Source: Cetorhinus maximus (taxonomy: Eukaryota). From it: a stretch of 64,000 nt of DNA. The position numbers and the translations under genes were made by a program. The notes beneath the pieces are model-generated. The model searched no databases, was not told the DNA's origin, and worked only from the letters and a program-made list of their open reading frames with translations. The number at the start of each line of letters is the position of its first letter. Within the stretch, counting starts at the first letter, position 1. Where the stretch lies: assembly GCF_964194155.1 (NCBI RefSeq), contig NC_135881.1, positions 197,222,001 to 197,286,000 on the forward strand. The letters run 5' to 3'. Below are positions 6,493 through 59,350 of this stretch, one piece after another.

Positions 6493-7377
6493 ATCAGCAG
6501 GTTCAAAATATGCGGACTCTCATTATTAATTTGGAATGAGCGCCCCCTGCATGATAATTATGTATTCAGTTATTGCATATCATGTACATTTGATAGTTTT
6601 GGCTATGCAATCACTAAACACATCACAGCAATCCATGTGGTTGATCAAATAAATTGCACAATATACCCAGGAAAGTCGTTTTCAGCAAATGGGCACAGGA
6701 ATCTTTCCAGGATAAAAAAGGTCGTTCATGGAGTACTGATGTTCCCTGCGCTGCTGCTGAAACGCTTCTGGCAAAGTTTATCGCCAATGCTTCGATATCT
6801 GGGCATTCACTCAGCTTAACTTAGGATCACTTATCAAAATTATTAGAGTGTCTAGGATTCAAGGGAGTATTTAACCTTGTGCGACAAATTACTCATCCTT
6901 GACTGTTGTACAAGAGTAGTCACAAAGATCACTATTGTTTGTCATTTTACCCAATTCTAATGTAATTCAAAAACTGACAAAGCTTTCTGGCTTGAAAGTA
7001 TAATTACACAACACTGAATATTATCAGTAATTCTAGTACAGCCTATTTCTAACGCCATTATCTATAGCAATTTCCTACATTACTAACACCAGCAATAGGT
7101 TAGGTTCTACATCATTATTGCAAAGGTCTAAGTGTAGCCTCAAAACCTCCAAAGTCATTACGCAAATAAAACCACACCGAGAAATAATTATATTATCTAG
7201 GAATATTGAATGAAACACAAAATGCTTCAGGGACCCCTGTCATTGTGCACCGCAACTGCCCTTCCTGCCCGATTGAGCCCAGAGACAATTTGAAGTCCAG
7301 AAGCCAGATCAGACACACTGGAAATTTTAACTTCTGTCTGTGCATCAGTAAATGTGAAGTAATAACTAATAAATAGA

Positions 7378-7577
7378 TCTGAAAGCATCTGTGGAGAGAA
7401 AGACAGAGTTAACATTTCGAGTCCAGATGACTTTTCTTCAGACTCCAGTCATCTGTACTCGAAACTTTAACTCTGTCTTTCTCTCCGCAGATGCTGTCAG
7501 ACCTGCTGAGTTTTTCCAGCAATTTTTGTTTTTGTTTCAGATTTCCAGCATCCACAGTATTTTGCTTTTTACTTTAG
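7378..7577 (+). mobile_element. Penelope-derived short fold-back element with hammerhead motif
   Basis: Inverted arms around ~7445; 13-bp TSD ACTAATAAATAGA (7365-7377 / 7578-7590); homologous to the 3' end of the PLE at 31328-32927. Confidence 0.85.
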
Positions 7578-9633
7578 ACTAATAAATAGAATTGGATTCA
7601 TCAAAACAATGCTAGGTTCAGGAAGACACTGGCCATATGGGAACCATATCAGTTAATCACTTGTCACAGTCTGAATAAAAGGGCCTCCACATGCAGGCTT
7701 CATGTACTCCCCAGTAGCCATTCTTTGCAGCAAAGGTGTGGGGTAGGGGGTGATTTCTAATTTAAAAAGAACACTGATTTCAGTTTACATTTTAGAAGTT
7801 TCTGCAAAGCTCATTTAAAAATTGGACAGTTATCAACCCTATCGTGCTGCATGATCTGTATTAAGCAATTCAATTAGGGATATTTATTTTATGATAGCTG
7901 GTTCTCAATGGGGAAGTTTAATTGTAATTGTGTTTCCCTCGTTGTGAGATCTTGCCTAGCCTGCAAATATAAAACTATACAGATCATTCAGCAGCTATTA
8001 CATCACTCCTAATGCTGAATCTTTCAGGGGAGCAGTGGGTAATGGTGAGAACAATGGCTGAGTAAAGGAGCAGGAAATACTGGAGATCTTTCTTTCAAAT
8101 TGTTAGCAATCCCCTGTAAACTATCTATCGGGTTTAAAAGTGCCATTAAAAGATATGAGTCATGATAGAAGTAAGCCAATGTGCAGCAATGTTTTTTTGC
8201 TAAATTATGTGAGAATAATGCTATTGTAGGCCCTTATTCTGCACCATTTCATTAATTTAGCATTACCATATAGCTATTCCCTTTGCCCTCCTAATGTGTT
8301 CCCAAAAAATGGCATTCTAAATGAAAATCAATTTCCCCTAAGAAAACGTGTAAGAAGGGCTCTTGACCTGTAGTTTTACATTTAAAACCTATTGTCTATC
8401 TGGCCCAAAAATCCTATTTCTAACTTTTCCTCACTTGTTAACTCAACTACTTAAGAAGTCTTAATAACTTGCCTACTCTTTCTACTGCTTCCAGCTTGCC
8501 GCTTTCAGCTCGCTGCTTCTCTCCTGGAGCCTCCTGCTCATCGCTTCCCTACCCCGACCACCCAGCTCGATACTTCCCTCTCTACCCGTTACCTCTCCTT
8601 CTCTCCGGCCCTCCTGCTTGCCGACTTTTCCACTCGCCACTTCCCTCTCCCAACCCTCCTGTTTGCAACATACCTTTTGCTCATCATATCCCACCCCCCT
8701 CCCCCCGACTCTCCTGCTCCTTCTTGTTTGCCATTTCCCTTTCCCGAACTCAGTTTGAACGAGGGCTTGGGAGAGAGATGGTGAGTGGGAAAGCGAGCAA
8801 GGGAGGGAGGGCGATGGGCTCTGAGTTGGAGGTAGGGAGCAGGTCAGGGAGGGAAACAGCGAGTGGGAAGGTTGGCGAGTAGGAGGTGACAAGTGGGAGG
8901 AGTCAGCAAGCAGGATAAGCAGGAGGGTTGGGGAGAGGAGCTGCCAGTGGGAGAGGGAAGTGGGAAGGTCAGGAGAGGGAATTGGCAAAGTGGCCATTTG
9001 TTTTTTAAAAAGACTGCGCATGCTTAGTAACCGTGCTAACACAAAAATGGAGGCAGCGTCTGGATTTCTGCATTTAACTGCGTATGTGCATACTCCAGAA
9101 GTTGTCAGATTTCCTCCATTATAATAGTGAATGCTGATGGCCTCGCCAATATTTTCATTGTAAATTCGGGTCTACACCCTATGCATGTGAATGTTGGGGA
9201 CACTTTGTGAAAAGCCTGCAGAAGCAGAATCTTAAACGCACATTGTATAGAGCATGGATTGACATTTGGTCAGATATACCAGTGTACATTAAGATTACGA
9301 TAGTCACTGGTGTATAACTAATGGTGTTTGTCCAGTAGACCATTGTTAATTTTAAGTTCCATTAAAATGGGTGGAAATGCACGCACAATTCTTTTTAAAC
9401 CAAAAGAAAAATTGATCTTTCCAAAGCTGGTCTTAACCAGTTCTGATCAAGCAGTAGAGTTCACATATTCAGTAGTTGTCCCTAAACATTCCATTTACTG
9501 TCTTTTGACAGACATGGATTCCATCTTAATTTATGCAATTCGAGCAAATGATAATTGACAATTCTGTGGTATGTTAACCTATTCACTCCACCTGAGGTGT
9601 ATAATTAAGCTAAGAGAAATGGGCCTACATAAT

Positions 9634-10228
9634 CAAAAACAAAAATACCTGGAAAAACTCAGCAGGTCTGACAGCATCTGCGGAGAGGAACAAAGTTAAC
9701 GTTTCGAGTCCGTATGACTCTTCAACAGAACTAAGGAAAAATAGAAAAGAGGTGAAATATAAGCTGGTTTAAGGGGGGTGGGACGGGTAGAGCTGGATAG
9801 AGGGCCAGTGATAGGTGGAGATAACCAAAAGATGTCATAGACAAAAGGACAAAGAGGTGTGAAAGCTGGTGATATTATCTAAGGAATGTGATAATAAAGG
9901 TACAGATAGCCCTAGTGGGGGTGGGGTTGGTTATCACATTCCTTAGATAATATCACCAACTTCAACACCTCTTTGTTCTTTTGTCTCTGACATCTTTTGG
10001 TTATCTCCACCTATCACTGGCCCTCTATCCAGCTCTACCTGTCCCACCCCCCTTTAAACCAGCTTATATTTCACCTCTTTTCTATTTTTCCTTAGTTCTT
10101 TTGAAGAGTCATACGGACTCGAAACGTTAACTGTGTTCCTCTCCGCAGATGCTGTCAGGCCTGCTGAGTTTTTCCAGGTATTTTTGTTTTTGTTTTGGAT
10201 TTCCAGCATCCGCAGTTTTTTGTTTTTT
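9634..10228 (+). mobile_element. Penelope-derived fold-back element with ~260-bp inverted arms
   Basis: Left arm 9634-9892 is the reverse complement of ~9931-10196, with a ~38-nt spacer. The sequence matches the PLE 3' region at ~44880-45163. No clear TSD. Confidence 0.88.
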
Positions 10229-17358: not shown

Positions 17359-18044
17359 ATATGCTGAATGCCAAATTTTAATCTCAACAAATCTGTAAAA
17401 GTGTTGTTGACATTTTTTTCCCTGCCCTGCATTATATTTCATTTTATTTAGTATTCCAGAGACAAGTAAACTATGGTAGACATATTCCAATGGTGTGAAG
17501 TCTGAACCACTTAAATTAAATTTCGCTCAACATTTGTGAAAATCTATAACTAATGCCATTATACAGAAATAAAACCACATGGATTCCTTCTTAGAGAAAG
17601 ATGCTCATTAGTCAATACCAGCACCACGAGCAGAGTCATTTTGACCCTGCTAACCAGTATCTCTACATTTCACATGTTCCCATAATGGAAACTGCGTTTG
17701 TTCCTGGAGAGCTCATTTGCTTTTAAACAAGGAGGCAGCCATGACATACTCTATTCTTTCACTTTGTGGTTTTCAAATAATAATGATATCTTTGTAAGCT
17801 AAATTGCCCCTATTCCTCATTTGATACCAAGGGTATGAAATGCCTAAACTGTCCTCTTCTATCTTGGTACTGGTCCCATTAGATCATTCATTTTCTTCAG
17901 CAAGAATGACAAGAAGGCTACCCACAGCTAGGTCTCGATCAACATTCTCTACCTACCGTAAACTTTAAAGCCTTTTTCTCTTAAACTGCTTCAATTGTAG
18001 GAACGTGCCCTGTCATGATTGATAACATGTAAATACATAACTGA

Positions 18045-18249
18045 AAAAACTCAGCAGGTCTAACAGCATCTGTGGAGAAAAAAGCAGAGTTGACGTTTCG
18101 AGTCCGTATGACTCTTCTTCAGAATGAAAAAGTCATACGGACTTGAAACATAAACTCTTGTTTTTTTTCTCACAGATGCTGTTAGACCTGCTGAGTTTTT
18201 CCAGTATTTTGTTTTTGTTTCAGGTTTCCAGCATCCGCGGTATTTTTCT
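18045..18249 (+). mobile_element. Penelope-derived fold-back element
   Basis: Inverted arms around ~18124; 15-bp TSD TAAATACATAACTGA / TAAATATATAACTGA (18030-18044 / 18250-18264). Confidence 0.85.
18087..18124 (-). ncRNA. Minimal type I hammerhead ribozyme motif (canonical core, GUC triplet)
   Basis: Minus strand reads UU-CUGAAGA-A-GAGUC-AUACG-GACUC-GAAAC-GUC-AACUC. The 5' strand of stem I is truncated by the inversion. Confidence 0.7.
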
Positions 18250-18699
18250 TAAATATATAACTGATTTTGTCGGTTATCAGCACTAAGGCTAAATAAAATG
18301 TTTTTCTTTCAAATTTCAATAGATTGAGACTCCAATAATGCCTCTAAGTACAAACCCAATTTGTAATTATTAGATAAGTGAGATAATAATGAGTTGAATT
18401 TAACCAAATAAAAGGACAGATCAGGTGCAAGTTAGTTTCTCAGTATAAATGCATAGCACATCCATTTCAACAACAGGCTTCCACATCTCACAATATTGGC
18501 TAAAGAGTCATCAAATAGGTTAATTAGATTTAGTTAAATTAATTAAAATTTCAACTCATGATTTCTGAGCTGCTATATAAATGACTTGACTCATTTAAAA
18601 CACAAATGATAAAAAATTATGGAAACACGAAGTAGGTCATCAACATCTGCAAATAGCAACTTGGTGTTTTGCACTTCTAAGGATTTATCAATGCACTTG

Positions 18700-28939: not shown

Positions 28940-29066
28940 TTCAGATGCAAGGTCATCGAGGTTAACTCTGTTTCTTTCTCCACAGTTGCCACCAGACCTG
29001 CTGCATATTTACAGCATTTTTTGTTTTTATTTCAGATTTCCAACATCCAGAGTATTTTGCTTTTGC
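28940..29066 (+). mobile_element. Old short Penelope 3' end copy
   Basis: GTTAACTCTGTTTCTTTCTCCACAG…AGACCTGCTG…TTTCAGATTTCCAACATCC. Confidence 0.65.
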
Positions 29067-31435
29067 AATTGTGTTGAATGCTGTGCAAATATTGAAGAGG
29101 ACATGGGGGCACAGGTAGTCACAAAGGATGTTGTTGATGACTTAACACCTGGGTAATCAGTCATCAGTGACATCCTTGGAAAATATTATGGATTTGTGCA
29201 ACATTGGCAATACCAAAGGTAGTTTAGAAATTTGTATTTTTCCTGATTAAGCATGCAGGAAAATATAAATGGTACCATATAATGCCTTTTGAGATTATAC
29301 TTAGTTTAAGCAATTTATTGAAAAGCTGCCCCAGTTATTCTTTTGATGGAAAGCTGGGGAGGGAGGTGGGTGGGCAAGGTAAAAGGTAGTGCAGCAGTAT
29401 TTAAAATACAAAATAATTATGAGAATTTACAAATTTTTGTATTATCTTCAAGTTAAAGGTTGGACAGATTATTCACTTTGCTGAAAAGGCCACTGCAGAG
29501 TGCAATAGGATGTACTGGAAATCAAGCTGCACACATCTTAAATAATAATAGGGGTAAGGCAATAAACAACCACATTTATCTGTTGGATTTCACTGCTTAC
29601 AACCTGGGGCCTTTTAATTCTACATCTAATGGTCACACATCACACATTGCAGCTGTCTAGCTAGTAATTAAGATGGAACCTATTACAGCAAATGTTGCTT
29701 GTAAATGACTGATTAATTTAATGCTTGCTTCCTATAATTTCGATCTCTTTTTGTAAGTGACTTGTTTAAAAAGCTAAAAAAAAGCCTATTGCTGTATCGT
29801 TCAAAGTCAACATTGTAGCTTTCTTGTTTTAAAACTTAGACGCATCCAAGAGAGTAAATTGATTTTATCAGCAATACATGCAGTAAATAAGACACACATT
29901 TTATCTCGTTCTTCAATTAAAAATTAGCAGCAATTTGTCCCCTGAATGGCCGAGCAATAATGTTAATAACCCAATGAACATCAGGGGTGAAGGGAAAAGA
30001 AGACCATAATTCAGGAAGTTACGCCCAAAATTGTCAATTTTCCTATTATCAATTTACACCTAAATTTCCTTCTAATCTTATTAGCATGTAAAATTCAGCA
30101 AAAACAAGTGAAAACCAGGTGTAAACAATTATGGTTAAGAGCATGCAAAGTGGAAGCTTTTAAATTTGTTATGTGACTCCGATTGAAGCTATAAAAAAGC
30201 ATTGAAAGGAACATGAAATGTAGTGCAGGTTTAATTAAATCACAATAAAACACCAGAAAAATGACTATTTTCTGCTGTGTCTAAAGTTCTGGCCTTAATT
30301 TTATATCTAATGTGAACAATGTAATTGCAGGGAAGTTGCATGTACAGCTCTTTAGCATGTGGGGTCAGTATAATGAATCTATATGCATTCAGGCACAAGG
30401 ATAAAAATCTAAATGCACCCCGTAAAATAAAGTTTAAAATATACAACCGTGTCTTGTCTTTTGAGTCAGTTCTTCACTGTCTGGATAAAAGGATGCTGCC
30501 ATGCATTAAAATCCTCACAAGGGCCTGGATTAAACATTTAGAGATGAGCAAGCTTGGGATGTGGCATTGGAATTGGATGCCTAATATCAAAAGTGGCTCT
30601 ATGAGACAAGCCACACCATGTATTCCACCATGTTGAATGCAGGCATTATATAGCTGATGAGGAAAGTGTTGGAATTATAGCTTTTGAAGGTGGGTTATGA
30701 GTTCACATGTTTAGTCCAGTAAAACAAAAGATAAAATACTGCTGTTACCGCTCTCAAACAACAGAAAATCATGGAAACTCTCAGCAAGTTTTGAGAAGGA
30801 TTATATCTTTCCAAAGTCATGAATAACATGCCATATGGCTGTGACAAAGGTAAACTATCGCTCCTTATCGTCTCGAACCATCTGCAGTCTTTGGCATGGT
30901 GGACCACATTATCCTCCTTCAATGCCTCTTCACCATCTGGGAAGGATTGCTCTCATTTGGTTCCATCCTAATCTAATTATAGCCAGAGTATCACTTGCGA
31001 TGGCCTCTCTTCCCACATCTGCACTGTTACCTCTGGTGTCCCTCAAGAGTCTATCCTTGGACACCTCTTTCTCATATACATGCAGTCCCTCAATGACACC
31101 ATCCTAAAACATAGTGTGAGTTGTCACACATACACTGATGGCACCCAGTTCTACCTAACCACCCCCTCTCTCGATTCCTCCACTGTTGCTAAATTATCAG
31201 GCTGCTTAGCCAACATCCAGTACTCAAATGAAAAGAAATTTCCTCCAATTAAATATTGGAAAGACTGAAGCCATTGATTTTGGTTCCCGCTCCAAACTTT
31301 TTCCCTAGCTACTGACTCCATTCTCATAGATAAAAACAAAAAGCTAAAAAGCTACTGCGGATGCTGGAAATCCAAAACAAAAACAGAATTACCTGGAAAA
31401 ACTCAGCAGGTCTGGCAGCATCGGCGGAGAAGAAA

Positions 31436-31478
31436 TCAGTTAACATTTCGAGCCTTCATGGCCCTTCGGCAGAACTGA
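31436..31478 (-). ncRNA. Minimal hammerhead-like motif in the PLE 3' region (A6C core variant)
   Basis: UCAGUU-CUGCCGA-A-GGGCC-AUGAA-GGCUC-GAAAU-GUU-AACUGA; perfect 6-bp stem I and 5-bp stem II. Confidence 0.6.
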
Positions 31479-31845
31479 AGCATAGTTAGGAGAAGGGAGA
31501 ATTATAAACTGGTTTAAGGGGGGGGGGGGGGCGAAGAGGGAAGTTGAGGGTGTGGTGATTGTGGAGATAAGCAGTGATAGGAGCAGATAATCAAAAGATG
31601 TCACAGACAAAAGGATCAAAGAGGTGTTGAAGGTGGTGATATTTGTCTAAGAAAAGTGCTAATTAAGAATGGAAGACAGGATACTCAAAGTACAGCTCTA
31701 GTGGGGGTGGGGTGGACAGACTAACAAGGTTTTAGTTTTAGATTTAAAAATAATGGAAATAGGTGGAGAAAGAAGAATCTATATAAATTATTGAAAAAAA
31801 AAAGAGGGGGGGGAGAAACGGGGTGGGGATGGGGGGAGGGGGAGT

Positions 31846-32927
31846 TTAAGATCTAAAGTTGTTGAATTCAATATTCAGCCCAGAAGGCTGTAAAGTGCCT
31901 AGTCGGAAGATGACGTGCTGTTCCTCCAGTTTGCGTTGGGCTTCACTGGAACAATGCAGCAAGCCAAGGACAGACATGTGGGCAAGAGAACAGGGTGGAG
32001 TGTTAAAATGGCAAGCGACAGGGAGGTTTGGGTCTTTCTTGCGGACAGACCGCAGGTGTTCCGCAAAACGGTCGCCCAGTTTGCGTTTGGTCTCTCCAAT
32101 GTAGAGGAGACCGCATTGGGAGCAACGAATGCAGTAGACTAAGTTAGGGGAAATGCAAGTGAAATGCTGCTTCACTTGAAAGGAGTGTTTGGGCCCTTGG
32201 ATGGTGAGGAGAGAGGAAGTGAAGGGGCAGGTGTTGCATCTTCTGTGTGGGCATGGGGAGGTGCCATAAGTGGGGGTTGAGGAGTAGGGGGTGATGGAGG
32301 AGTGGACCAGGGTGTCCCGGAGGGAACGATCCCTACGGAATGCCGTCAGGGGGGGTGAAGGGAAGATGTGTTTGGTGGTGGCATCATGCTGGAGTTGGCG
32401 GAAATGGCGGAGGATGATCCTTTGAATGCGGAGGCTGGTGGGGTGATAAGTGAGGACAAGGGGGACCCTATCATGTTTCTGGGAAGGAGGAGAAGGCGTG
32501 AGGGAGGATGCGCGGGATATGGGCCGGACACGGTTGAGGGCCCTGTCAACGACCGTGGATGGAAAACCTCGGTTAAGGAAGAAGGAGGACATGTCAGAGG
32601 AGCTGTTTTTGAAGGTAGCGTCATCAGAACAGATGCGACGGAGGCGAAGGAACTGAGAGAATGGGATGGAGTCTTTACAAGAAGCGGGGTGTGAGGAGCT
32701 GTAGTCGAGGTAGCTGTGGGAGTCGGTAGGCTTGTAATGGATATTGGTGGACAGTCTATCATCAGAAATTGAGACAGAGAGGTCAAGGAAGGGAAGAGAA
32801 GTGTCAGAGATGGACCATGTGAAAATGATGGAGGGGTGGAGATTGGAAGCAAAATTAATAAATTTTTCCAGGTCCTGACGAGAGCATGAAGCAGCACCGA
32901 AGTAATCATCGATGTACCGGAGAAAGA
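31846..32927 (-). CDS. Partial Penelope polyprotein: RT motif C (RYIDD), thumb, Zn-linker and GIY-YIG endonuclease
   Basis: FLRYIDDYFG, LPFLD, YKPTDSHSYL, CPHRRCNTC and NLVYCIRCSQCGLLYIGETKRKLGDRFAEH, ending PSGLNIEF. About 360 codons with no stop; the first ~22 aa of the called ORF come from the flanking L2. Confidence 0.9.
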
Positions 32928-33309
32928 CATTCTCATCCCTGGCAACAGAGAGACTAAACCAGCATGTTTGCAAGCTTGGTGTCATATTTGACACCGAGAG
33001 GAGCTTCCGATCACATATTCAGACATCACTAAGATTGCCTATTTCCACCTCCATAACATGATCTGACTTCACTCATCTGCTGATGAAACCCTCATTCATG
33101 TCTTCATTACCTCTGGATGACTATTTCAACACACTCCTGGCTAGTATCCCACATTCTACCCTTCCTAAACTGATAATCCAAAACTCTGCTGCCAGCATCT
33201 AAAATCACACCAAGTGGCATTCCTCTATCACCCTGTGCTCGCTTAACTACATTGGCTCCTAATTAATGAGCATCTTAATTTTAAAAATCTCATCCTTGTT
33301 TTCATCCTT

Positions 33310-35627: not shown

Positions 35628-36770
35628 TGTCAGAACCATATCTTCAAGAACTATATTTTTCTTTTAAAATATGGGAAAGACATTGGACATTTTTGGACAT
35701 TGGACATATGGGAAAGACATTTGGACATTTTTTTTACAAAAAGGTCATGGGTTCACCTTTGAACTGGGAGCAAGCATGCCTTTTCCAAGAAATCACCTGA
35801 TCAGCATGGTACCTGATGGGGAAGAGCTGCAATTATTTTAATTGATGGGGAAAAAACTGGTTTAAAGGCAAAGACTAGTGATTTACTGGAAATCACATGA
35901 CAGAGATGAGCTTTAAGTTTTGAACTCAGTTGGGACTGAACTGAGAAAGGGAAAAACTGCCCAGCTTGCACTCTCTTTGACAAAAACAGAAATACCTGGA
36001 AAAACTCAGCAGGTCTGGCAGCATCGGCGGAGAAGAACAAAGTTGACGTTTGTTCTTCTCCGCCGATGCTGCCAGACCTGCTGAGTTTTTCCAGGTATTT
36101 CTGTTTTTGTTTTGGATTTCCAGGATCCGCAGTTTTTTTGTTTTTATTTTTGCACTCTCTTTGCCTTGCCCGATATCGTGTGATGGTCAGTGCCCAGCAT
36201 CTAAGTGGAACTGGTCTGTCCTTGAAAATCCAAGAGGGTGACATGGGAAGGATTGATCCAACTCTATTTTCCTCCACGCTGAAGCTCCGTTAGTGAGAAC
36301 CTCTAGGCACCTACTGGGACTAACGATCTGTCTTTACAAAAGGGAGCATTAGGTCAACAGCGTCGAAACCCTGTGAACTTCATCCTTTTCTTATGATTTT
36401 TTTTTCAACTGCCTGTCTCTGCAGAGACTCTACTTGCTTGTCGTTCGTTTGTGTGTGTGTGTGTGTGTGGGTGTGGGTGTGGGGGGGAAGCATGTGCGCA
36501 GTGGGGAATTTTAAAAGGGATAGTTATACTTCCAGATTACAATTGTCTATTAACCAGTTCTTGTAACTTGTTTTAAAAAAGAAGTTTGATTTTATAATAA
36601 ATCAATCATTTTAAGTATATTGAAAGAAGCCTGGTTAAAGTATCTTTTATTCTGGGTCTAACAGTAGCAAAGGCAAATAGTTGCCATTTTCCTGAGTGAA
36701 TTAAACTTTTAAACAAATGGTGTGACCTGCAGAGTAGTGGGGCTAGATAAACTGAGCATTCCTCCTATAT
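35628..36770 (+). mobile_element. 3' LTR of the Gmr1-like element (right end approximate)
   Basis: Purine tract AAAGGCAGAGGCA (35615-35627) is immediately followed by TGT; internal (GT)n and AATAAA at ~36596. Confidence 0.6.
35980..36149 (+). mobile_element. Penelope-derived perfect hairpin element inserted in the LTR
   Basis: Identical ~63-bp inverted arms; perfect 14-bp TSD TTGCACTCTCTTTG (35966-35979 / 36150-36163). Confidence 0.9.
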
Positions 36771-39555: not shown

Positions 39556-42460
39556 CTAACATACGAAATAGGAGCAGTAGTAGGCCATTCGGCCCCACGA
39601 GCCTGCTCTGCCATTCAATAAGATCATGGCTGATCTGTTTGTGCTGAGTTCTACATTCCCATCTACCTCTGATAACCTTTGATTCCCTTGGCCAGCAAGA
39701 ATCTATCTACCTCTGCGTTAAAAATATTCAGTGACCCTGCTTCCACTGCCTTCTGAGGCACAGTGTTCCAAAGTCGCACAACCCTCAGAAAAAATTTCTC
39801 CTCATTTCTGCCCTATAAGGGCGACCCCTAATTTTAAAACAGTGCTCCCTAGTTCTGGACTCACCCACAACAGGAAACATCCTTTCCATGTCCATCTTGT
39901 CAGGACCATTCAGGATCTTATATAATTCAATCAAGTCACCCCTCACTCTTCTAAACTCCAGTGGAAACAAGCCCAATCTTTCCAATCTATGCTCATAAGA
40001 CAATGCACTCATTCTAGGCATCAATCTAATAAACCTCCTCTGAACCGCCTCCAACGCATTTATATCCTTCCTTAAAAAAGGAGACCAAAACTGCACACAG
40101 TATTCGAGATGCGGTAACACCAATGCCCCGTATAACTAAAGCATAACGTCCTTACTTTTTTGTTCAATTCCTTTCATAATAAAGGATAATATTCCATTAG
40201 CCTTCTTGATTACATGCTGCACCTGCATGCTAACTTTTTGTGACTCATGCATGAGAACACCTAGATCCCTCTGCGCCTTTGAATTCTGCAGCCATCCTTT
40301 GTTTAAGTAATACTGGTTTTTTTATATTTCCTGCCAAAGTGAACAACTTCACATTTTGCCACATTATATTCCATCTGCCAGATTTTTGCCCGCTCACTCA
40401 ACTTATCTATATCCTGCAAACTTCTTCACAACATACTTTCTGTTGAAGGGTCATGTGGACTCGAAACGTCGACTCTTTTCTTCTCCACCGATGCTGCCAG
40501 ACCTGCTGAGTTTTTCCAGGTAATTCTGTTTTTGTTTTGGATTTCCAGCATCCGCAGTAGTTTTTTGTTTTTACTTTCCTACCTAGCTTTGTGTCGTCTG
40601 CAAATTTAGTTAACATGCCTTCACTCCCCTCATCTAAGTCATTGATGTAAATTGTAAAAAGTTGAGGCCCCAGGACAGACTCCTGCGGGACCCCACTAGT
40701 CACACCCTGCCAATCAGACGAAGGCCCATTTATGCATACTCTCTGTTTTTGGCCAACCAACCAATCCTCTATCAAGGCTAATATGTTACCACCTACACCA
40801 TGAGCTTTTATTTTCCACAATAACCTTTGATGTGGCACCTTATCAAATGCCTATGGAAATCCAAGTACAGTGTGTCTACAGCTCTCCTGTATCCATGGCA
40901 CATGTTACTCCTTCAAAAGAACTCTAATAAAATTGGTTAAACATGATTTCCCTTTCACAAAACCATGTTGATGCTTCCCGATTACCTTGTTTTTCAAGTG
41001 TCCAGCTATAACTTCCTTCATGATCGATTCTGACACCTTCCCTACAAAAGACATCAAACTAACGAGCCTATAGTTTCCTGTTTTCTGCCTCCCTCCCTTC
41101 TTGAATAGATGGGTTATATTTACTACTTTCCAGTCTGATGGAACCTTTCCAGAATCTAGGGAATTTTGGAAAATTAAGATCAATGCATCTACTAGCTCAT
41201 TAGCCACCTCTTTTAAGACCCTAGGATGAAGTCTATCCGGACCCAGAGATTTGTCAGCTCACAAATCCGTCAGTTTGCTCAGTACTGCTTTCCTAGTGAT
41301 TGTAATTTTACCAAGTTCCTCTCTCTCCTCCACCTCCTGATTTATTGCTATTACTGGAATGTTTTGAATAAAATTTCCTCTATAGTGAAGACAGAAACAA
41401 AATATTTGTTCATTTCATCCACCATTTCCTTATTATTTAATTTACCTCCCCATTCTCACTCTCCAGAGGACTGACACTCACTTTACCTACGCTTTTCCTG
41501 TTTAAATACCTGTAGAAACTCTTTATCCGTTTTTACATTTCTAGCTAGCTTCCTCTCATACTCCAATTTCTTTCTCCCGATTAACCTTTTAGACATTCTC
41601 TGCTATTCTTTATATTCTGACCAATCATCTGACTTGTCACTCTGCTATTCTTTATATTCTGGCCAATCATTTGACTTGTCACTCATCTTTGCACAGTTAT
41701 ACGTTTTTTCCTCAAGTTTGATTTAGTTAACCATGGGTGGTGGGTCCTCCCTTAAGAATTTTTCTTCTTAGTAGGAATACACTTATTCTGAAAAGTCCCC
41801 TTAAATGTCTGCTGCTGCTTCTCTACTGATCTATCTCCTAGCCTAGTATCCCAGTTCACTTCAGATAGCTCAGCTTTCACGCCCACATGGCTGCCCTTAT
41901 TTAAGTTTAAAATACTAGTCTTACATCACTCTTCCCCCTTTCATACTGGATGTAAAATTCAATCATATTGTGGTCACTGATACCTAGGGGTGCCTTTACC
42001 CTGAAGTTATTAATTAATTCCGTCATGTTACAGAATATCAAATCTAATATAGCCTGCTCTCTGGCTTGTTCCAAAAAGTGCTGCTCTGAGAAACTCTCTT
42101 GAAAGCATTCTATGAACTCCTCATCTAGGGTCCTACTGACAATCTGATTTACCCAGTTTATGTGTAGATTAAAGTCACCCAAGATTATTGCTGTCCTTTT
42201 ATTACAAGCACCCAATATTTCTTCTTGTATACTTTGTCCTACATTGTGGTTACTGTTAGGGGGCCTGTAGACCAGTCCCACTAGTGACTTCTTTCCCCTA
42301 CTATTCCTCATCTCCACCCAAACCAATTCTACATCCCGATCTCCTGAACCAAGGTCATCTTTAACTATTGCACCAATGCCATCCTTGATCAACAGTGCTA
42401 TCTCTTCACCTTTACCTATCTTCCTATTCTTCTTGAATGTCAAATACCCTCAATATTCAG
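39556..42460 (-). mobile_element. CR1 LINE, 5'-truncated ORF2, degenerate
   Basis: [48 protein letters not shown] and PHLEYCVQFWSP; TATGT tail at ~39560. Confidence 0.92.
40441..40571 (+). mobile_element. Short Penelope 3' copy nested in CR1, starting at the hammerhead core
   Basis: TSD TACTTTC (40434-40440 / 40572-40578); (C)TGTTGA-A-GGGTC-ATGTG-GACTC-GAAAC-GTC. Confidence 0.85.
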
Positions 42461-43972: not shown

Positions 43973-45383
43973 GGGATCAGGTTTTGCTGGAGTGAGACAT
44001 CTCATGGCATGCCTCATTATTTAGACTTGTTCGAGCATATTTAGATTTTTACATTTTTACACTGCTGGAAGTTAGAGCTGATGATGCACTGAGGTTTAAA
44101 TTACATTTGGAATCTTGGTGAACTATAATTAAAGAGATTTGTCCCAATGAGATTTAAAGATTTTTTAAAAATAGGAAACACTGAGAGCAAGGGTGATTGA
44201 GAGCAGGCGAATTCAATACCAAAACAGTTGAAGAACTGAAGAAAAGGAAAGAAAAATTGGATTGAGGGAGGTTAAAAACCAAAAGGAAAAATCAGAATGT
44301 TTTTGGCACTTTAAAAACATTCTAAAACAATTCACTATCTTAAGGAATGAGACTCCTCACTTATAATTGTTAACTTTCTAGGCATGAGAGGTTGGTCATT
44401 ACCAATCATTACAAACATCATTAAAAAGATGTTTAGTAAATACCAAACTTAACTTTCTGTTAACTTCGGTCTGGTCGCAAGCATTACCCAGACCTCCCTG
44501 TCGCTTGCCATTTCAACACTTCACCCTGCTCTCATGCCCGTCCTTGGCTTGCTGCATTGTTCCAGTGAAGCTCAACGCAAACTGGAGGAACAGCACCTCA
44601 TCTTCCGACTAGACACTTTACAGCCTTCTGGACTGAATATTGAGTTCAACAATTTTAGATCATGAACTCTCTCCTCCATCCCCACCCCCTTTCCGATCCC
44701 CCCCTTTTTTTCCCAATAATTTATATAGATTTTTCTTTTCCCACCTATTTCCATTATTTTTAAATGTATTTCCATCCAGTTTTATCTCTACCTTTTAGCC
44801 TTTTTTGATTCCTTCACCCCACCCCACCCCCACTAGGGCTATCTGCACCTTGCTTGTCCTGCTTTCTACCCTTAATTAGCACATTCCTTAGATAATATCA
44901 CCACCTTCAACACCTCTTTGTCCTTTTGTCTGTGACATCTTTTGGTTATCTCCACCTATCACTGGCCCTCTATCCAGCTCTACTTGTCCCACCCCCCCTT
45001 AAACCAGCTTATATTTCACCTCTCTTCTATTTTTATTTAGTTCTGTTGAAGGGTCATTCGGACTCGAAACGTTAACTGTGTTCCTCTCCGCAGATGCTGC
45101 CAGACTGCTGAGTTTTTCCAGGTATTTTTGTTTTGGATTTCCAGCACCCGCAGTTTTTTGTTTTTAACTTTCTGTGACAAGTTTAATGGCCAATTAATGT
45201 GCAAATGCAGGAACTTCACACTGCTTTCACAAAGCTAATGGAGGAGCGACGTAAATCAGCCAACAATTTGTGGCATTTCGCAATTCACAGATTATCGCTT
45301 CCTCACTACAGGTTGCTGGATGATTTGTGCATTAACAGTGTATGTCATTGAAATGCTGTTAAATGGTCAGCAAGATCTGAGCC
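43973..45383. mobile_element. TIR-bounded non-autonomous DNA element hosting a PLE fragment
   Basis: GGATCAGGTTTTGCTG … CAGCAAGATCTGAGCC (13/16 inverted match). Confidence 0.45.
44461..45163 (+). mobile_element. Penelope 3' fragment (GIY-YIG C-terminus + 3' region; hammerhead motif at 45038-45078)
   Basis: 12-bp TSD TTAACTTTCTGT (44449-44460 / 45164-45175); highly similar to the reverse complement of 31340-32050. Confidence 0.9.
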
Positions 45384-47049: not shown

Positions 47050-49912
47050 CTACAAAATTAATAAAAGGACAAAACTAAAAGCTCTGTATCTAAACGTACA
47101 TAGCATTCGAAACAAAACAGATGAACTGATAGCGCAAGTAAAAATAAGTACAATCTGATAGCCATTACAGAGACATGGCTACAGGATGACATAGATTGGG
47201 ACCTGAATATTGAAGGGTTTGTGACATTTAGGAAGGACAGGAAGTTAGGAAAAGGTGGTGGGGTGGTTCAGTCAATTAATGACAGTATTAGCACATTAGA
47301 GGGGGGTAACCTAAGTTCAGGAAACCAGGATGTATAAGCAGTTTGGGTTGAGATGAGAAAGTATAAAGGCAAAAAGTCACTTGTGGGAGTGGTGTACAGG
47401 CTCCCTAATTATAACTACATGGTAGGACAGGGTATAAAAGAAGAGATAATGCGAGCTTGTCAGAAAGATACAGCGAGAAATCAGATGGGCAAAGGCAGCA
47501 TAGCTGAGGAGTTCACAGAATGTTTTCAGGATAGTTTCTTAGAACAGCACTTTCTGCAGCCAACCAGAGAGCAGGTTATACTAGACCTGGTATTGAGCAA
47601 TGAGGTCGGATTAATTGATAACATCGTAGTGAAGGTAACCCTAGATATCAGCGATCATAATATGATTGAATTTTATATTCATTTGAGGGAGAAATGACTG
47701 CATCCAAGACTAGTATTTTAAACTTAAAAAGGACAATTATGAGGGCATGAAAGCAGAGCTAGTTAAAGTGAACTGGCAAATGAGGTTAAGGGATAGCTCA
47801 ATAGAGGTTTAGTGGCAGACATTTAAAGGGATATTTCAGAATACACAGCATATATACATTCCAATGATAAAGAAAAACTCCAAGGGGAGGGCCCACAATC
47901 CGTGGTTAACAAAAAAAGTTAAAGACAGTGTCAAACTTAAAGAAAAAGCATATAATTACGCAAAGACGGGTGGCAGGTCAGAAGGTTGGAAAGAATTTAA
48001 AGAACAGCATAGAATGATAAGAAGGTTAATAAGGAGAGAAAATTAGAGTACGAAAGAAAGCTAACTAGTAATATAAAGATGGATAGTATGAGTTTCTATA
48101 GATAATTAAACAAGAAAAGAGTTAACAAAGTGAGCGTTGGTCCTATAGAAAGTGCATCTAGGGAATTGATAATGGAAAGTAAGGAGATAGCAGGTGAATT
48201 AAACAGGTATTTTGCTTCAGTCTTCACTATAGAGGACACAAGTAACATCCCGGAAATAGCTAAGTCAGGAAATGGAAGGGAGGGAAGAACTCAGGAAAAT
48301 TACAGTCACCAATGAATTGGTATTGAACAAATTGTTGGGGCTGCGGGCTGACAAATCCCCAGATCTGGATGGACTTCACCCCAGAAGAAGAGGCTAGTGA
48401 GATAGTTGATGCAATGGTTTTAATTTTCCAAAGCTCCCTAGATTTGGGGAAGGCTCCATTACATTGGAAAATAGTAAATGTAACTCCTTTATTCAAAAAG
48501 AGAGGGAGACAGAAAACAGGAAACTACAGGCCAGTTAGCCTAACATCTGTCATAGGGAAAATGTTAGAAGCTATTATTAAAAATGTTATAGCAGGGCACT
48601 TAGAAAAATTTAAAGCAATCAGACAGAGTCAACATGGTTTTGTGAAAGGGAAATCATGCTTAACCAATTTATTGGAGTTCTTTGAAGGAGTCACATGTTC
48701 TGTGGATAAAGGGGAAGTGGTGGATTTCGACTTCCAGAAGGCATTTGATAAAGTGCCACATCAAAGGTTATTGTGGAAAATAAAAGCTCATAGTGAAGGG
48801 GGTAACATATTTGCATTGATAGAAGATTGGCTAGCTAAAAGGAAGCAGAGAGTTGGCATAAATGGGTCTTTTTCTGGTTGGTAGGGTGTGATGAGTGGTG
48901 TGCCACAAGGATCAGTGCTGTGGCCTCAACTTTTTACAATTTATATAAATGATTTGGATGAAGGGATTGAAGGAATAGTTGCTACATTTGCTGAAGATAC
49001 AAAGATAGGTAGGAAAATAAATTGTGAAGAGGACATAAGGAGGCTACAAAGTTGACATAGATAGGTTAATTGAGTGGGCAAAAGTTTGGCAAATGGAGTA
49101 TGATGTGGACAAATGTGAAATTGTACATTTTGGCAGGAAGAATAAAAAAGAAGCTTATTAGCTAAATGGTGAGAGATTGCAGAGCTCAGATTCAGAGGGA
49201 ACTGGGTGTCCTAGTACATGAATCACAAAAGGCTAGTATGTAGGTACAAGTAATCAGGAAAGCTAATAGAATATTATCATTTGAGAGGGGAATTGATTAC
49301 AAAAGTAGGGAGATTATGCGTCAGTTGTACAGGACACCGATGAGACCACATGTGAAGTACTGTGTACAGTGTTGGTCTCCTTATTTAAGGAAAGATGTAA
49401 ATGTATTAGCAGTGTAGAGAAGGTTTACTAGACTAATACCAGGAATGGGCAGGTTGTCTTATGAGGAAAGGTTGGACAGGTTAGGCTTCTTTCCACTGGA
49501 ATTTAGAAGAGTAAGAGGTGGCTTGATTGAAACCTTCTAAGACCCTGAGAGGTCTTGACAGGGTGGATGTGGAGAGGATGTTCCCTCTTGTGGGAGAATC
49601 TAGAACTAGGGGTCACTGTTTAAAAATAAGGGGTCGTTCATTTAAGACAGAGATGGGGAGAAATTCTTTCTCTCCGAGGGTAGAGTGTCTTTGGAATTCT
49701 CTTCCTCAAAAGACAGTGGAGCAGTCTCTTTGAATATCTTTAAGATAGAGCTAGACAGATTCTTAATTAACAAGGGGATGAAAGATTATCGGGGTTGGCA
49801 GGAATGTGGGGTTGAGGTTACAATCAGATCAGCCATGATCTTATTGAATGGCAGAGCAGGCTTGAGGGGCTGAGTGGCCTACTCCTGCTCCTAATTCGTA
49901 TGTACGTATGTT
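47050..49912 (+). mobile_element. CR1 LINE, near-complete ORF2, degenerate
   Basis: AITETWL, GVVYRLPN, ISDHNMI, GNYRPVSLTS, DFQKAFDKVPH and GVPQGSVL; TATGTACGTATGT tail. Same subfamily as 39556-42460. Confidence 0.92.
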
Positions 49913-50591
49913 TGTAAGTTGTTGTTGTCTGATTTGCCTTTTCACCTAGGCAGGTGAGGCATCTATATATTAAATGGTTTCAAGTAACTAGTGGGTACTA
50001 TTCAGCAATGCGTGAGAAACTTAGGGCCCTTTCTTGCGACCTTAACAGGAAACTGAATTTTTTATTTTGCTTGTGGAACCTGCAGCAATGCAGACAAATG
50101 TCAATTTCCAAATGCCAACAGCAAGCGGGAAAATCATGTTTTGGAAGTCAGTGGCACAAGCAAGATTTTTTTAAAAAACCACTATCCACGAGTGAGCTTC
50201 ATGCGTTTACATTATTAAATCCAGTACCCTTATCCTGTTAGCATCCTAACCTTTCATTTGGTTATTCATTTGGCACATTATTCCTGTTGCTGTCTATCTG
50301 CTCAAAAGCTCCCTCACCTTGCCTTTGACCTCAGTAAACCTTTAATCTCTCCTGTCATGGTCATCCATCTTGGCTCCCTCAAGATCAAGGTATGCAGTTG
50401 TCAGTAAATCTGGTGCACAGCTGGTTTAGCCATTCATAGCCAGATCTGACTGGACACATCCTCTGGAAGCGGTGAGTAGTTTTGGCATACACAATTCCAG
50501 ATAACAAAGATAACCATTACCCTCAACAATGTGGCTTCATGTTTCCACTACCAAATAATTCAAAGTGATATGAGGAACCCACCAACTATTC

Positions 50592-50753
50592 TGAAGTTCT
50601 GAAGAAGTGGAGTGGAGTTCTGAAGAAGACTCATACGGACTCGAAACATTAACTCTGTCTTTCTCTCCACAGATGCTGTCAGACCTGATGAGTTTTTCCA
50701 GCAATTTTTGTTTTTGTTTCAGATTTCTAGCATCTGCAGTATTTTGCTTTTAT
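50592..50753 (+). mobile_element. Short Penelope 3' copy with hammerhead motif (50615-50655)
   Basis: 13-bp TSD CCACCAACTATTC (50579-50591 / 50754-50766); GAGTT-CTGAAGA-A-GACTC-ATACG-GACTC-GAAAC-ATT-AACTC. Confidence 0.85.
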
Positions 50754-50769
50754 CCACCAACTATTCAGC

Positions 50770-58409: not shown

Positions 58410-59350
58410 TAGGGTTGCCAACCCTTCCGGGATGGCTGGGAGTTTCCTGGAATCGGTCTCAATCTCCTGGTGCCCAAACAAAGCTCCCGGCAATGGCGGC
58501 CAGGACTGTACAATAGCCAGTCCCAGCCTGTGCTTGGATACCACCTGACCCTCCAGATGCCCAGGACAAATTATTAGCCAATCACAGCTTGTGCTTGGGT
58601 ACTACTTGACCTTCCTTACGTTAGGGACCAGCTGTCAGCCAATCACAGCCTGCGTTCAGGTACCAGTTGACCTTCCCTACGCCAGGAACCTGCTCCCCCA
58701 CCCACGGAAATGCTCGACTTGGCATCGGCGGAGGCCACTTGACAGAAATATCTGAGTGGCCTGCAGGCCACATGATCAGTGCTCCAATCAATTGAGGCGA
58801 TGCCCACTTGGGCTGCAGAACTGGAGGAAAGGGCACTGATTATGAGCCAAGATTAGGCTCAGCTGAGACTGGCTGGATGCTGGTATTGTGATTAATTAGT
58901 GTTGTTATTGTTATTCATTAGTGTCGGATTGAATTGGTGGTGACCAGACGGACTGTTCTGCACTGTGGATTTCTGTCCCCCGAGAGCAACTGCCTGGGGA
59001 AGGATTTGACAGATTCAGTAACAGAATTTAGTGGAGACAGGCTCATTCCCTCTCACTTAGTGTCACACTGAACCAGTGTTCACAGTTGACAGAAACAGCT
59101 GATGTGAGTTGAGACCAGGTGACCTGCTTGACAGAAAAGCTCGATGGAGCACAGCCCTGTAGCCACTTTCCGCTGTATCTTTGTAGCTGTCAACCTCACA
59201 TGTGTTACATTGAACTATATAAAATATACAGCATAGAAAGAGGCCATTTGGCCCAACTAGTCTGTGCCGTGAAATCACTTTTGCCGCTTCCCATGAGGTC
59301 ACTTCTGCTGATGTCTCCTGGAATATGTCCAGCCAGTGTTGGCAACCCTA
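58410..59350. mobile_element. hAT-like MITE (941 bp)
   Basis: Perfect 13-bp TIRs TAGGGTTGCCAAC / GTTGGCAACCCTA; 8-bp flanks TCTTCTGC / TCTCCTGG (6/8). Confidence 0.78.
58501..58683 (+). repeat. Three diverged tandem ~61-bp units inside the MITE
   Basis: Each unit reads ~CAGGAC…AGCCAATCACAGCCTGTGCTTGGGTACCA..TGACCTTCC. Confidence 0.8.

Follow-up and report, generated by a model that had tools for sequence, protein, structure and literature searches.

Hairpin-forming insertions of a Penelope-like element (PLE) in Cetorhinus maximus break preferentially at one place, the 5' edge of helix I of a predicted hammerhead ribozyme. The head-to-head layout of these insertions is ordinary for PLEs; for the mapped junction peak at the helix I edge, no published report was found in a search that covered mainly openly available papers. 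We favour, as rather probable, a route in which two cDNAs primed from both target nicks run off a putative RNA 5' end near position -34 and are then end-joined. In the young subfamilies, the breakpoint counts speak against truncations arising through ribozyme cleavage.

The parent element and its copies in the window

The window, by which we mean the whole 64-kb stretch of DNA analysed (in a genome of 4.0 Gb), contains 9 insertions of one Penelope-like repeat family. Positions within the element are counted from the predicted hammerhead, with +1 as the first base 3' of the predicted cleavage triplet GUH and 0 as H17. The longest copy, at 31337-33018, holds a 390-aa open frame (P0001); downstream of it lie the 3' UTR, a hammerhead of the minimal type I form and some 105 more bases. 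The frame encodes the C-terminal part of a reverse transcriptase (RT), which is the only RT part in the window and has a YIDD motif, then a CX4CxxC linker and a GIY-YIG domain with CCHH. A PF01541 match over residues 293-328 of P0001 (E 1.6e-4, 22.3 bits) lies slightly below the cut-off of 22.6. P0001 has the CxxC between the motifs and the two His that mark the GIY-YIG/CCHH endonuclease of EN+ PLEs, and its protein-atlas neighbours at 0.96 are of the HTH_animal/GIY-YIG/RVT_1 kind. A passage of PMC8557442 defines Neptune by a CX2-5CxxC linker ahead of the endonuclease, and the linker of P0001 conforms to this, although Nematis has a linker too. Judged by motif, the parent is an endonuclease-bearing PLE of Neptune type. 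Its 3' end continues past the tail into the common body in 764 exact matches, and is therefore a pseudo-LTR (pLTR); several of these copies have the 3' UTR directly ahead. The features in the window are as follows.

31337-33018, minus strand: parent element 3' part, with 390-aa open frame, 3' UTR, hammerhead and tail
7365-7590, no strand: head-to-head insertion, older subfamily, 13-bp TSDs (7365-7377, 7578-7590), arm ends -31 and -21
9631-10228, no strand: head-to-head insertion of greater length, whose arms end at about -250 and -197
18030-18264, no strand: head-to-head insertion, older subfamily, 15-bp TSD with 1 mismatch (18030-18044 / 18250-18264)
28961-29064, plus strand: old diverged 3'-end copy, starting near -2
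35966-35979, no strand: left TSD of the 36045 hairpin, 14 bp, same sequence as 36150-36163
35980-36051, minus strand: inverted arm, +65 to -6, without tail, spanning the predicted cleavage site
36042-36048, minus strand: 7-nt hairpin loop with the predicted scissile bond 36044/36045, placed by the minimal hammerhead model in a passage of PMC4209133
36049-36149, plus strand: sense arm, +4 to about +105, with the tail at 36111-36149
36150-36163, no strand: right TSD, same sequence as 35966-35979
40438-40573, plus strand: non-inverted mini copy, starting at -32
44464-45163, plus strand: non-inverted 700-bp truncated copy, 12-bp TSD
50592-50753, plus strand: non-inverted mini copy, short insert then a start at -34, 13-bp TSD (50579-50591, 50754-50766)

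As an earlier, sequence-only reading had noticed, four insertions in the window consist of an antisense followed by a sense copy of the PLE 3' end, three of them with TSDs of 13-15 bp; it also described correctly that the inversion junction lies inside the hammerhead in three and that all four junctions differ. The arms are identical at 52/58 positions in 7378-7577, at 254/264 in 9631-10228, where a TSD of at least 7 bp was looked for and none was found, and at 83/94 in 18045-18249, whose arms end at about -32 and at -24 to -29 (blast carries the first to -40). In the 36045 hairpin (35966-36163), arms 35980-36041 and 36049-36110 are identical throughout (62/62), flank a 7-nt loop, overlap by 3 nt (36049-36051) and sit within a perfect 14-bp TSD; its fold z is -23. 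The earlier reading took the identity of its arms as a sign that this insertion is very young, but youth is relative only: identical arms were found in 6 of 75 sampled inverted copies.

Other repeats were seen in the same stretch. At 50592-50616, the short insert between TSD and element start partly repeats the first bases of the element. Two long diverged repeats in opposite orientation (40570-42150 and 47478-49021), 71-82% alike, are probably old LINE copies, and 58500-58682 consists of three diverged 61-bp tandem units.

Each hairpin arises at its own insertion

Copies were drawn by exact tail patterns lying 3' of the ribozyme (2642, 14428 and 1654 matches), so that their selection is independent of the junction. 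The first 90, 90 and 30 listed places of the three patterns formed the sample, and breakpoints were mapped against natural long copies. The statistics leave out 23 copies found by a best-hit search, since no tail pattern had selected them, as well as 3 second views of pairs with two tails; a few long arms were censored at -560 (at -260 in the older-subfamily set). As the patterns demand exact matches and the places are mostly on one chromosome, the sample favours young copies. It holds 214 copies, of which 91 (about 40%) were inverted, 72 simply truncated and 51 longer than 560 nt; the 91 show the one-sided 30-40-bp tail with an inverted 5'-truncated copy that characterizes EN+ PLEs. Exact tail matches in the genome number at least 20,000. 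Even-step sampling of 200 kb showed some 15 insertions of the family, which by rough scaling would give a few hundred thousand genome-wide.

A TSD of at least 10 bp (mode 14 bp) surrounds 67 of the 91 inverted copies, compared with 0-1 in five shuffled pairings. A repeated junction was looked for among these 91 copies and none was found, and the exact 36045 junction has 1 match in the 4 Gb genome. The two arms of a copy were on average 96% identical, compared with 92% for arms of different copies carrying the same variant (n=75); the two arms share the tail variant in 50/56 copies and the loop variant in 25/32. Same-variant arms, TSDs and unrepeated junctions together indicate that each hairpin arose at its own insertion from one source variant. 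This upholds the earlier proposal that hairpins form at integration and are not copied from a MITE master, since the inverted copies lack the many near-identical members with fixed ends and junction that define a MITE. One junction form does recur (ends -33/-34, 1-nt centre; 4 of 30 inspected, and L304), as copies of a master hairpin might, but it is spread over different subfamilies and has its own variants on both arms each time. With arms that differ by about 4% and carry TSDs, and with inverted joints present also in contigs of a second organism, the chance that the hairpins are master copies or assembly artefacts is practically negligible.

A peak of arm stops at the helix I edge

Counted per 100 nt, stops reached a rate of 3.0 at -30..-37 (36 events in 214 copies), compared with 0.65 inside the hammerhead and 0.33 just upstream of the edge; at the cleavage site, with 4 events, the rate was 0.19, and over +37..+6 it was 0.26. 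The rate ratio of the -30..-37 peak is 5.7 (p 3e-12) for a bin picked after looking at the data; in a scan test, the best 8-nt window had 55/184 ends, whereas the maximum in 5000 exponential nulls was 45. Non-inverted copies (16/123), tailed arms (20/91) and inverted arms (19/88) all contribute to the peak, which was significant in two of three tail variants but not in the third and smallest (2/29, p 0.11). The older subfamily has 13/70 ends at the edge (ratio 5.1, p 5e-5), and there the edge is sharp: 5 sense ends fall on -34, and -35..-42 has none. Genome-wide, arms matching edge-breaking patterns number 1873 (pattern covering -35..-32) and 216. The expectation that breakpoints would be non-uniform and concentrated in the hammerhead region was thus borne out, 47 of the 91 inverted copies having an arm end within +5..-37.

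A second peak, at -58..-66, was seen in inverted arms (12/88; e.g. L013, L146, L202, L243) on an AT-rich, TATA-like motif. Microhomology, a second RNA end or an endonuclease cut are possible sources.

No breakpoint peak at the predicted cleavage site

The sequence-only reading placed the 36045 junction next to the cleavage site and supposed a strand switch or twin priming at the structured or cleaved RNA end. The predicted scissile bond is indeed in the loop between the identical arms of this hairpin, and the junction of another copy (L024) is nearly identical. However, the antisense arm crosses the predicted site and reads 7 nt through it, so that the template was uncut there. Sense ends within 5 nt of the site were found in 4/214 copies, a rate lower than that of the flanks, and 5/91 inverted copies have an end within that distance. 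Genome-wide, 42 arms were broken at +1 versus 45 at the control position +4; the two patterns had detection chances of about 0.38 and 0.53, giving a corrected ratio near 1.3, and the 1873 edge-pattern arms were normalised differently from these counts. For the young subfamilies, the breakpoint counts refute a cleaved RNA end as the cause of the hairpins. The older subfamily with a canonical core, in which 4/70 ends lie at the cleavage site, gives a weak test, and we hold the cleaved-end explanation as a whole to be very improbable.

Inspection of 30 of the +1 hits found 19 inverted copies and 5 internal deletions, the latter again speaking against cleaved ends. These deletions (L426, L430, L432, L441, L449) run between short AAC repeats, with loss of the cleavage triplet. 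Seven of the 19 inverted +1 junctions join -34 via a 4-nt helix I complement (L429, L438, L439, L444, L446, L448, L427). No other junction class is linked to pairing within the ribozyme, and this joint occurs in 0/91 copies of the unselected sample. Since the joints are rare and the same 4-5 letters also join +38 (2/19), plain microhomology explains them and suffices. In 6 of the 7, the tailed arm is the shorter one; a cleaved together with an uncleaved template, or flap trimming, could produce this. A template switch at the ACGT dimer palindrome was also considered, and no breakpoint excess was found near -4..-1.

The state of the ribozyme bears on the same point. Of 111 long copies, 90 fit a descriptor of the minimal type I hammerhead, which has the core boxes, helices I and II, a palindromic 15.2-16.2 and one extra base after 9, and the predicted fold of 10090-10135 shows helices I and II, with A(-34) as the first paired base of helix I; one copy (L279) folds differently. 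An Rfam scan of the window returned no hammerhead family, and its miRNA and psbJ matches, under the gathering score, reflect hairpins and were discarded. In the young subfamilies, core position 6 is U or C (31430-31480, 40438-40480, 45040-45080 and sampled copies; 85 listed of the 90 matched copies), which counts against cleaved ends, and the older subfamily keeps A. Going by this base, the ribozyme of the most abundant subfamily may be weakened.

Junction geometry favours two primed cDNAs

Each arm has its own preferred limit on the tail side. Among 68 inverted copies that have a TSD of at least 10 bp, 55 show an inverted arm starting within +60..+76 (mode +68/+69), and the tailed arm mostly ends at about +99..+107. 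Three copies have the tail on both arms, and in four (L299, L306, L309, L314) the TSD borders an end at about +67 and there is no partner arm. On the upstream side, it is the inverted arm that extends further, by more than 3 nt, in 36/91 copies and the tailed arm in 32/91; the two are equal in 23/91. The junctions are variable, with overlaps of 0-5 nt or short inserts.

In those 36 copies, the longer upstream reach of the inverted arm means that neither arm can have been copied from its partner, so a strand switch, which the sequence-only reading had offered, is not supported as a general route when it occurs singly. The same geometry weighs on the idea that one cDNA folds back to copy itself, or self-primes on an antisense template, as a passage of PMC3846280 proposes for the palindromes of Adineta PLEs. 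In its favour are the correlation of arm ends (Spearman 0.70), their agreement within 3 nt in 23/91 copies and short junction overlaps like that at 36049-36051. Yet the 36/91 junctions are impossible for self-copying unless the spacer was flipped later, and it leaves unexplained both the fixed +68 start of the short arm and the same peak in non-inverted copies; we therefore consider it highly unlikely.

By contrast, two primed cDNAs joined at their 3' ends would explain both arm-length classes, the 14-bp TSD and the overlaps or inserts, and we regard this much as quite probable. A close parallel is Poseidon PAc of Anolis in vitro, for which passages of PMC11167929 report that two RT start sites bound the tail, that both target strands are cut and extended, that the protein is predicted to dimerize and that ribozyme cleavage is dispensable. 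The tail-side limits of the two arms agree with those start sites. As here, the hammerhead of PAc stands at the ORF head; unlike PAc, the present element belongs by motif (Neptune-type linker) to a different clade, and those passages do not treat inverted junctions and cDNA stop points. The mechanism of inverted and tandem PLE insertions is called undefined in a passage of PMC8557442. The target would be cut with a stagger of about 14 bp, and each nicked strand would prime its own cDNA, as happens with the Anolis protein in vitro. The cDNAs would run off a putative RNA 5' end near -34, or stop earlier, whereupon host repair would end-join the two cDNA 3' ends into the head-to-head unit. The ribozyme would then mark the hot spot by its position at the transcript head and not by cutting. 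A more specific version would have a protein dimer begin two cDNAs behind the hammerhead near the 5' end of its transcript, each running off a start site that coincides with the outermost helix I base pair, much like a retroviral 'strong-stop' product; we rate this version as less likely than not.

What the -34/-33 edge may be

The stop at -34/-33 is read most economically as a putative transcription start, to judge from its sequence context. A TATA-like motif lies 29 nt ahead of A(-34) in 79/89 and 19/20 matched long copies, a spacing that partly reflects shared descent. A(-34) falls within YYAGTTC, an initiator-like sequence. TATA and initiator-like motifs have been described in pLTRs in a passage of PMC3846280. 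Against a transcript start, copies running into the ORF have scattered 5' ends with no pile-up at -34, as judged by eye at 30 loci. A copied cap could leave an untemplated G at -35, but G showed no excess in a count by eye of 100 rows, the first of 216, which gave 53 C, 28 A and 19 G; many of the -35 bases in this count derive from the partner arm. A cap-G signature hinted at by 4/5 sense ends of the older subfamily was not upheld in these 100 rows.

Two other accounts retain the two cDNAs and change the nature of the stop. The RNA might have been trimmed by an exonuclease or protected by protein on helix I, or RT might have been blocked there, so that the edge would belong to the ribozyme itself. 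The stop exactly at the first paired base of helix I, the missing cap-G excess, the raised stop rate inside the hammerhead (0.65 vs 0.24-0.33 upstream), the Anolis protein, which binds this region and assists the ribozyme according to a part of PMC11167929, and the 7/19 inverted +1 junctions that reach -34 through helix I complement all fit such an edge. On the other hand, helix I has 4 bp only, the fold of the motif does not stand out from that of shuffled sequences (z -0.5, -1.2), RT would first meet the structure at its 3' side, where there is no peak, and the helix I junctions are rare; we judge this account unlikely. The same edge bases read just as well as a 3' splice site with its branch point, polypyrimidine tract and AG; the template would then be a spliced RNA whose first exon is tiny, or RT would be blocked by splicing factors bound to the AG. 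A branch-point-like motif, a pyrimidine tract (purines 0.13-0.16) and YAG at -35..-33 are conserved in both subfamilies, G is kept at -33 in 82/100 rows (by eye), and the intron of Drosophila virilis Penelope ends at helix I in a passage of PMC4209133. However, an upstream exon of the element abutting -32 was looked for in 78 copies and found in none, a TSD or partner arm is flush with the edge in many copies, and the whole sense 3' UTR is rich in pyrimidine (C+T 0.72). A splice site is, in our view, distinctly unlikely, and a putative transcription start remains our preferred reading of the edge.

Comparison with known systems

In L1 twin priming, two target nicks each prime a cDNA, and an inversion inside TSDs results. 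The L1 product joins adjacent, barely overlapping segments of the RNA, whereas the two arms here copy the same region; the two fixed start sites of the arms are a further difference from L1.

The insertions are head-to-head copies of a Neptune-type PLE in an already published layout. Like the Pen2/Pen2a insertions of Adineta and the inverted-pLTR insertions of D. virilis Penelope in passages of PMC3846280 and PMC8557442, they have a head-to-head 5'-truncated copy, a TSD around the unit, a junction overlap and a tail of 30-40 bp on one side. This is the typical PLE structure and no new route to palindromes; the earlier reading had thought of a ribozyme-linked one. Differences from Adineta and D. 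virilis are that many units here are cut down to 150-300 bp, that the TSD mode is 14 bp compared with 8-10 bp in the Adineta examples, and that the helix I edge peak is absent from the passages of these two papers on Adineta and D. virilis. The junction geometry here argues against the self-priming proposed for Adineta. Short 5'-truncated PLE insertions are also reported in PMC9977147, in passages that say nothing on junctions.

The ribozyme resembles the minimal type I hammerheads of metazoan PLEs in passages of PMC4209133, with a 4-bp helix I, an extra base after position 9, a G-C closing pair and a palindromic ACGT replacing helix III; the U or C at core position 6 of the young subfamilies sets it apart from them. 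Opposite-strand hammerhead pairs 100-700 bp apart were already noted there in 2014. Non-LTR retrozymes, as described in part of bioRxiv 10.64898/2026.07.22.740005, are likewise short non-coding PLE-derived units with a type I hammerhead. They form head-to-tail arrays, whereas the four insertions in the window are head-to-head single events. One retrozyme-like head-to-tail array of the same family was seen elsewhere (L274, G000:C1:45238394-45241422), with 267-bp units that each contain hammerhead, tail and ORF head.

Implications for the PLE family

The preference of junction geometry for two primed cDNAs ties the in vitro result in the cited part of PMC11167929 to scars in a genome. It also gives -34/-33 as an exact, testable position for an RNA 5' end. 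If the 'strong-stop' version is true, tens of thousands of head-to-head mini-insertions would record, like fossil primer extensions, where the PLE transcript starts, and a short cDNA could jump to the 3' copy and so rebuild the pLTR. Partial tandems were observed at four places (L396, L265, L263, L286): there the ORF head runs into a second copy that begins close to the 3' UTR or the helix I edge, the form that template jumps would give. The family is a large source of genomic palindromes and possibly of double-stranded RNA.
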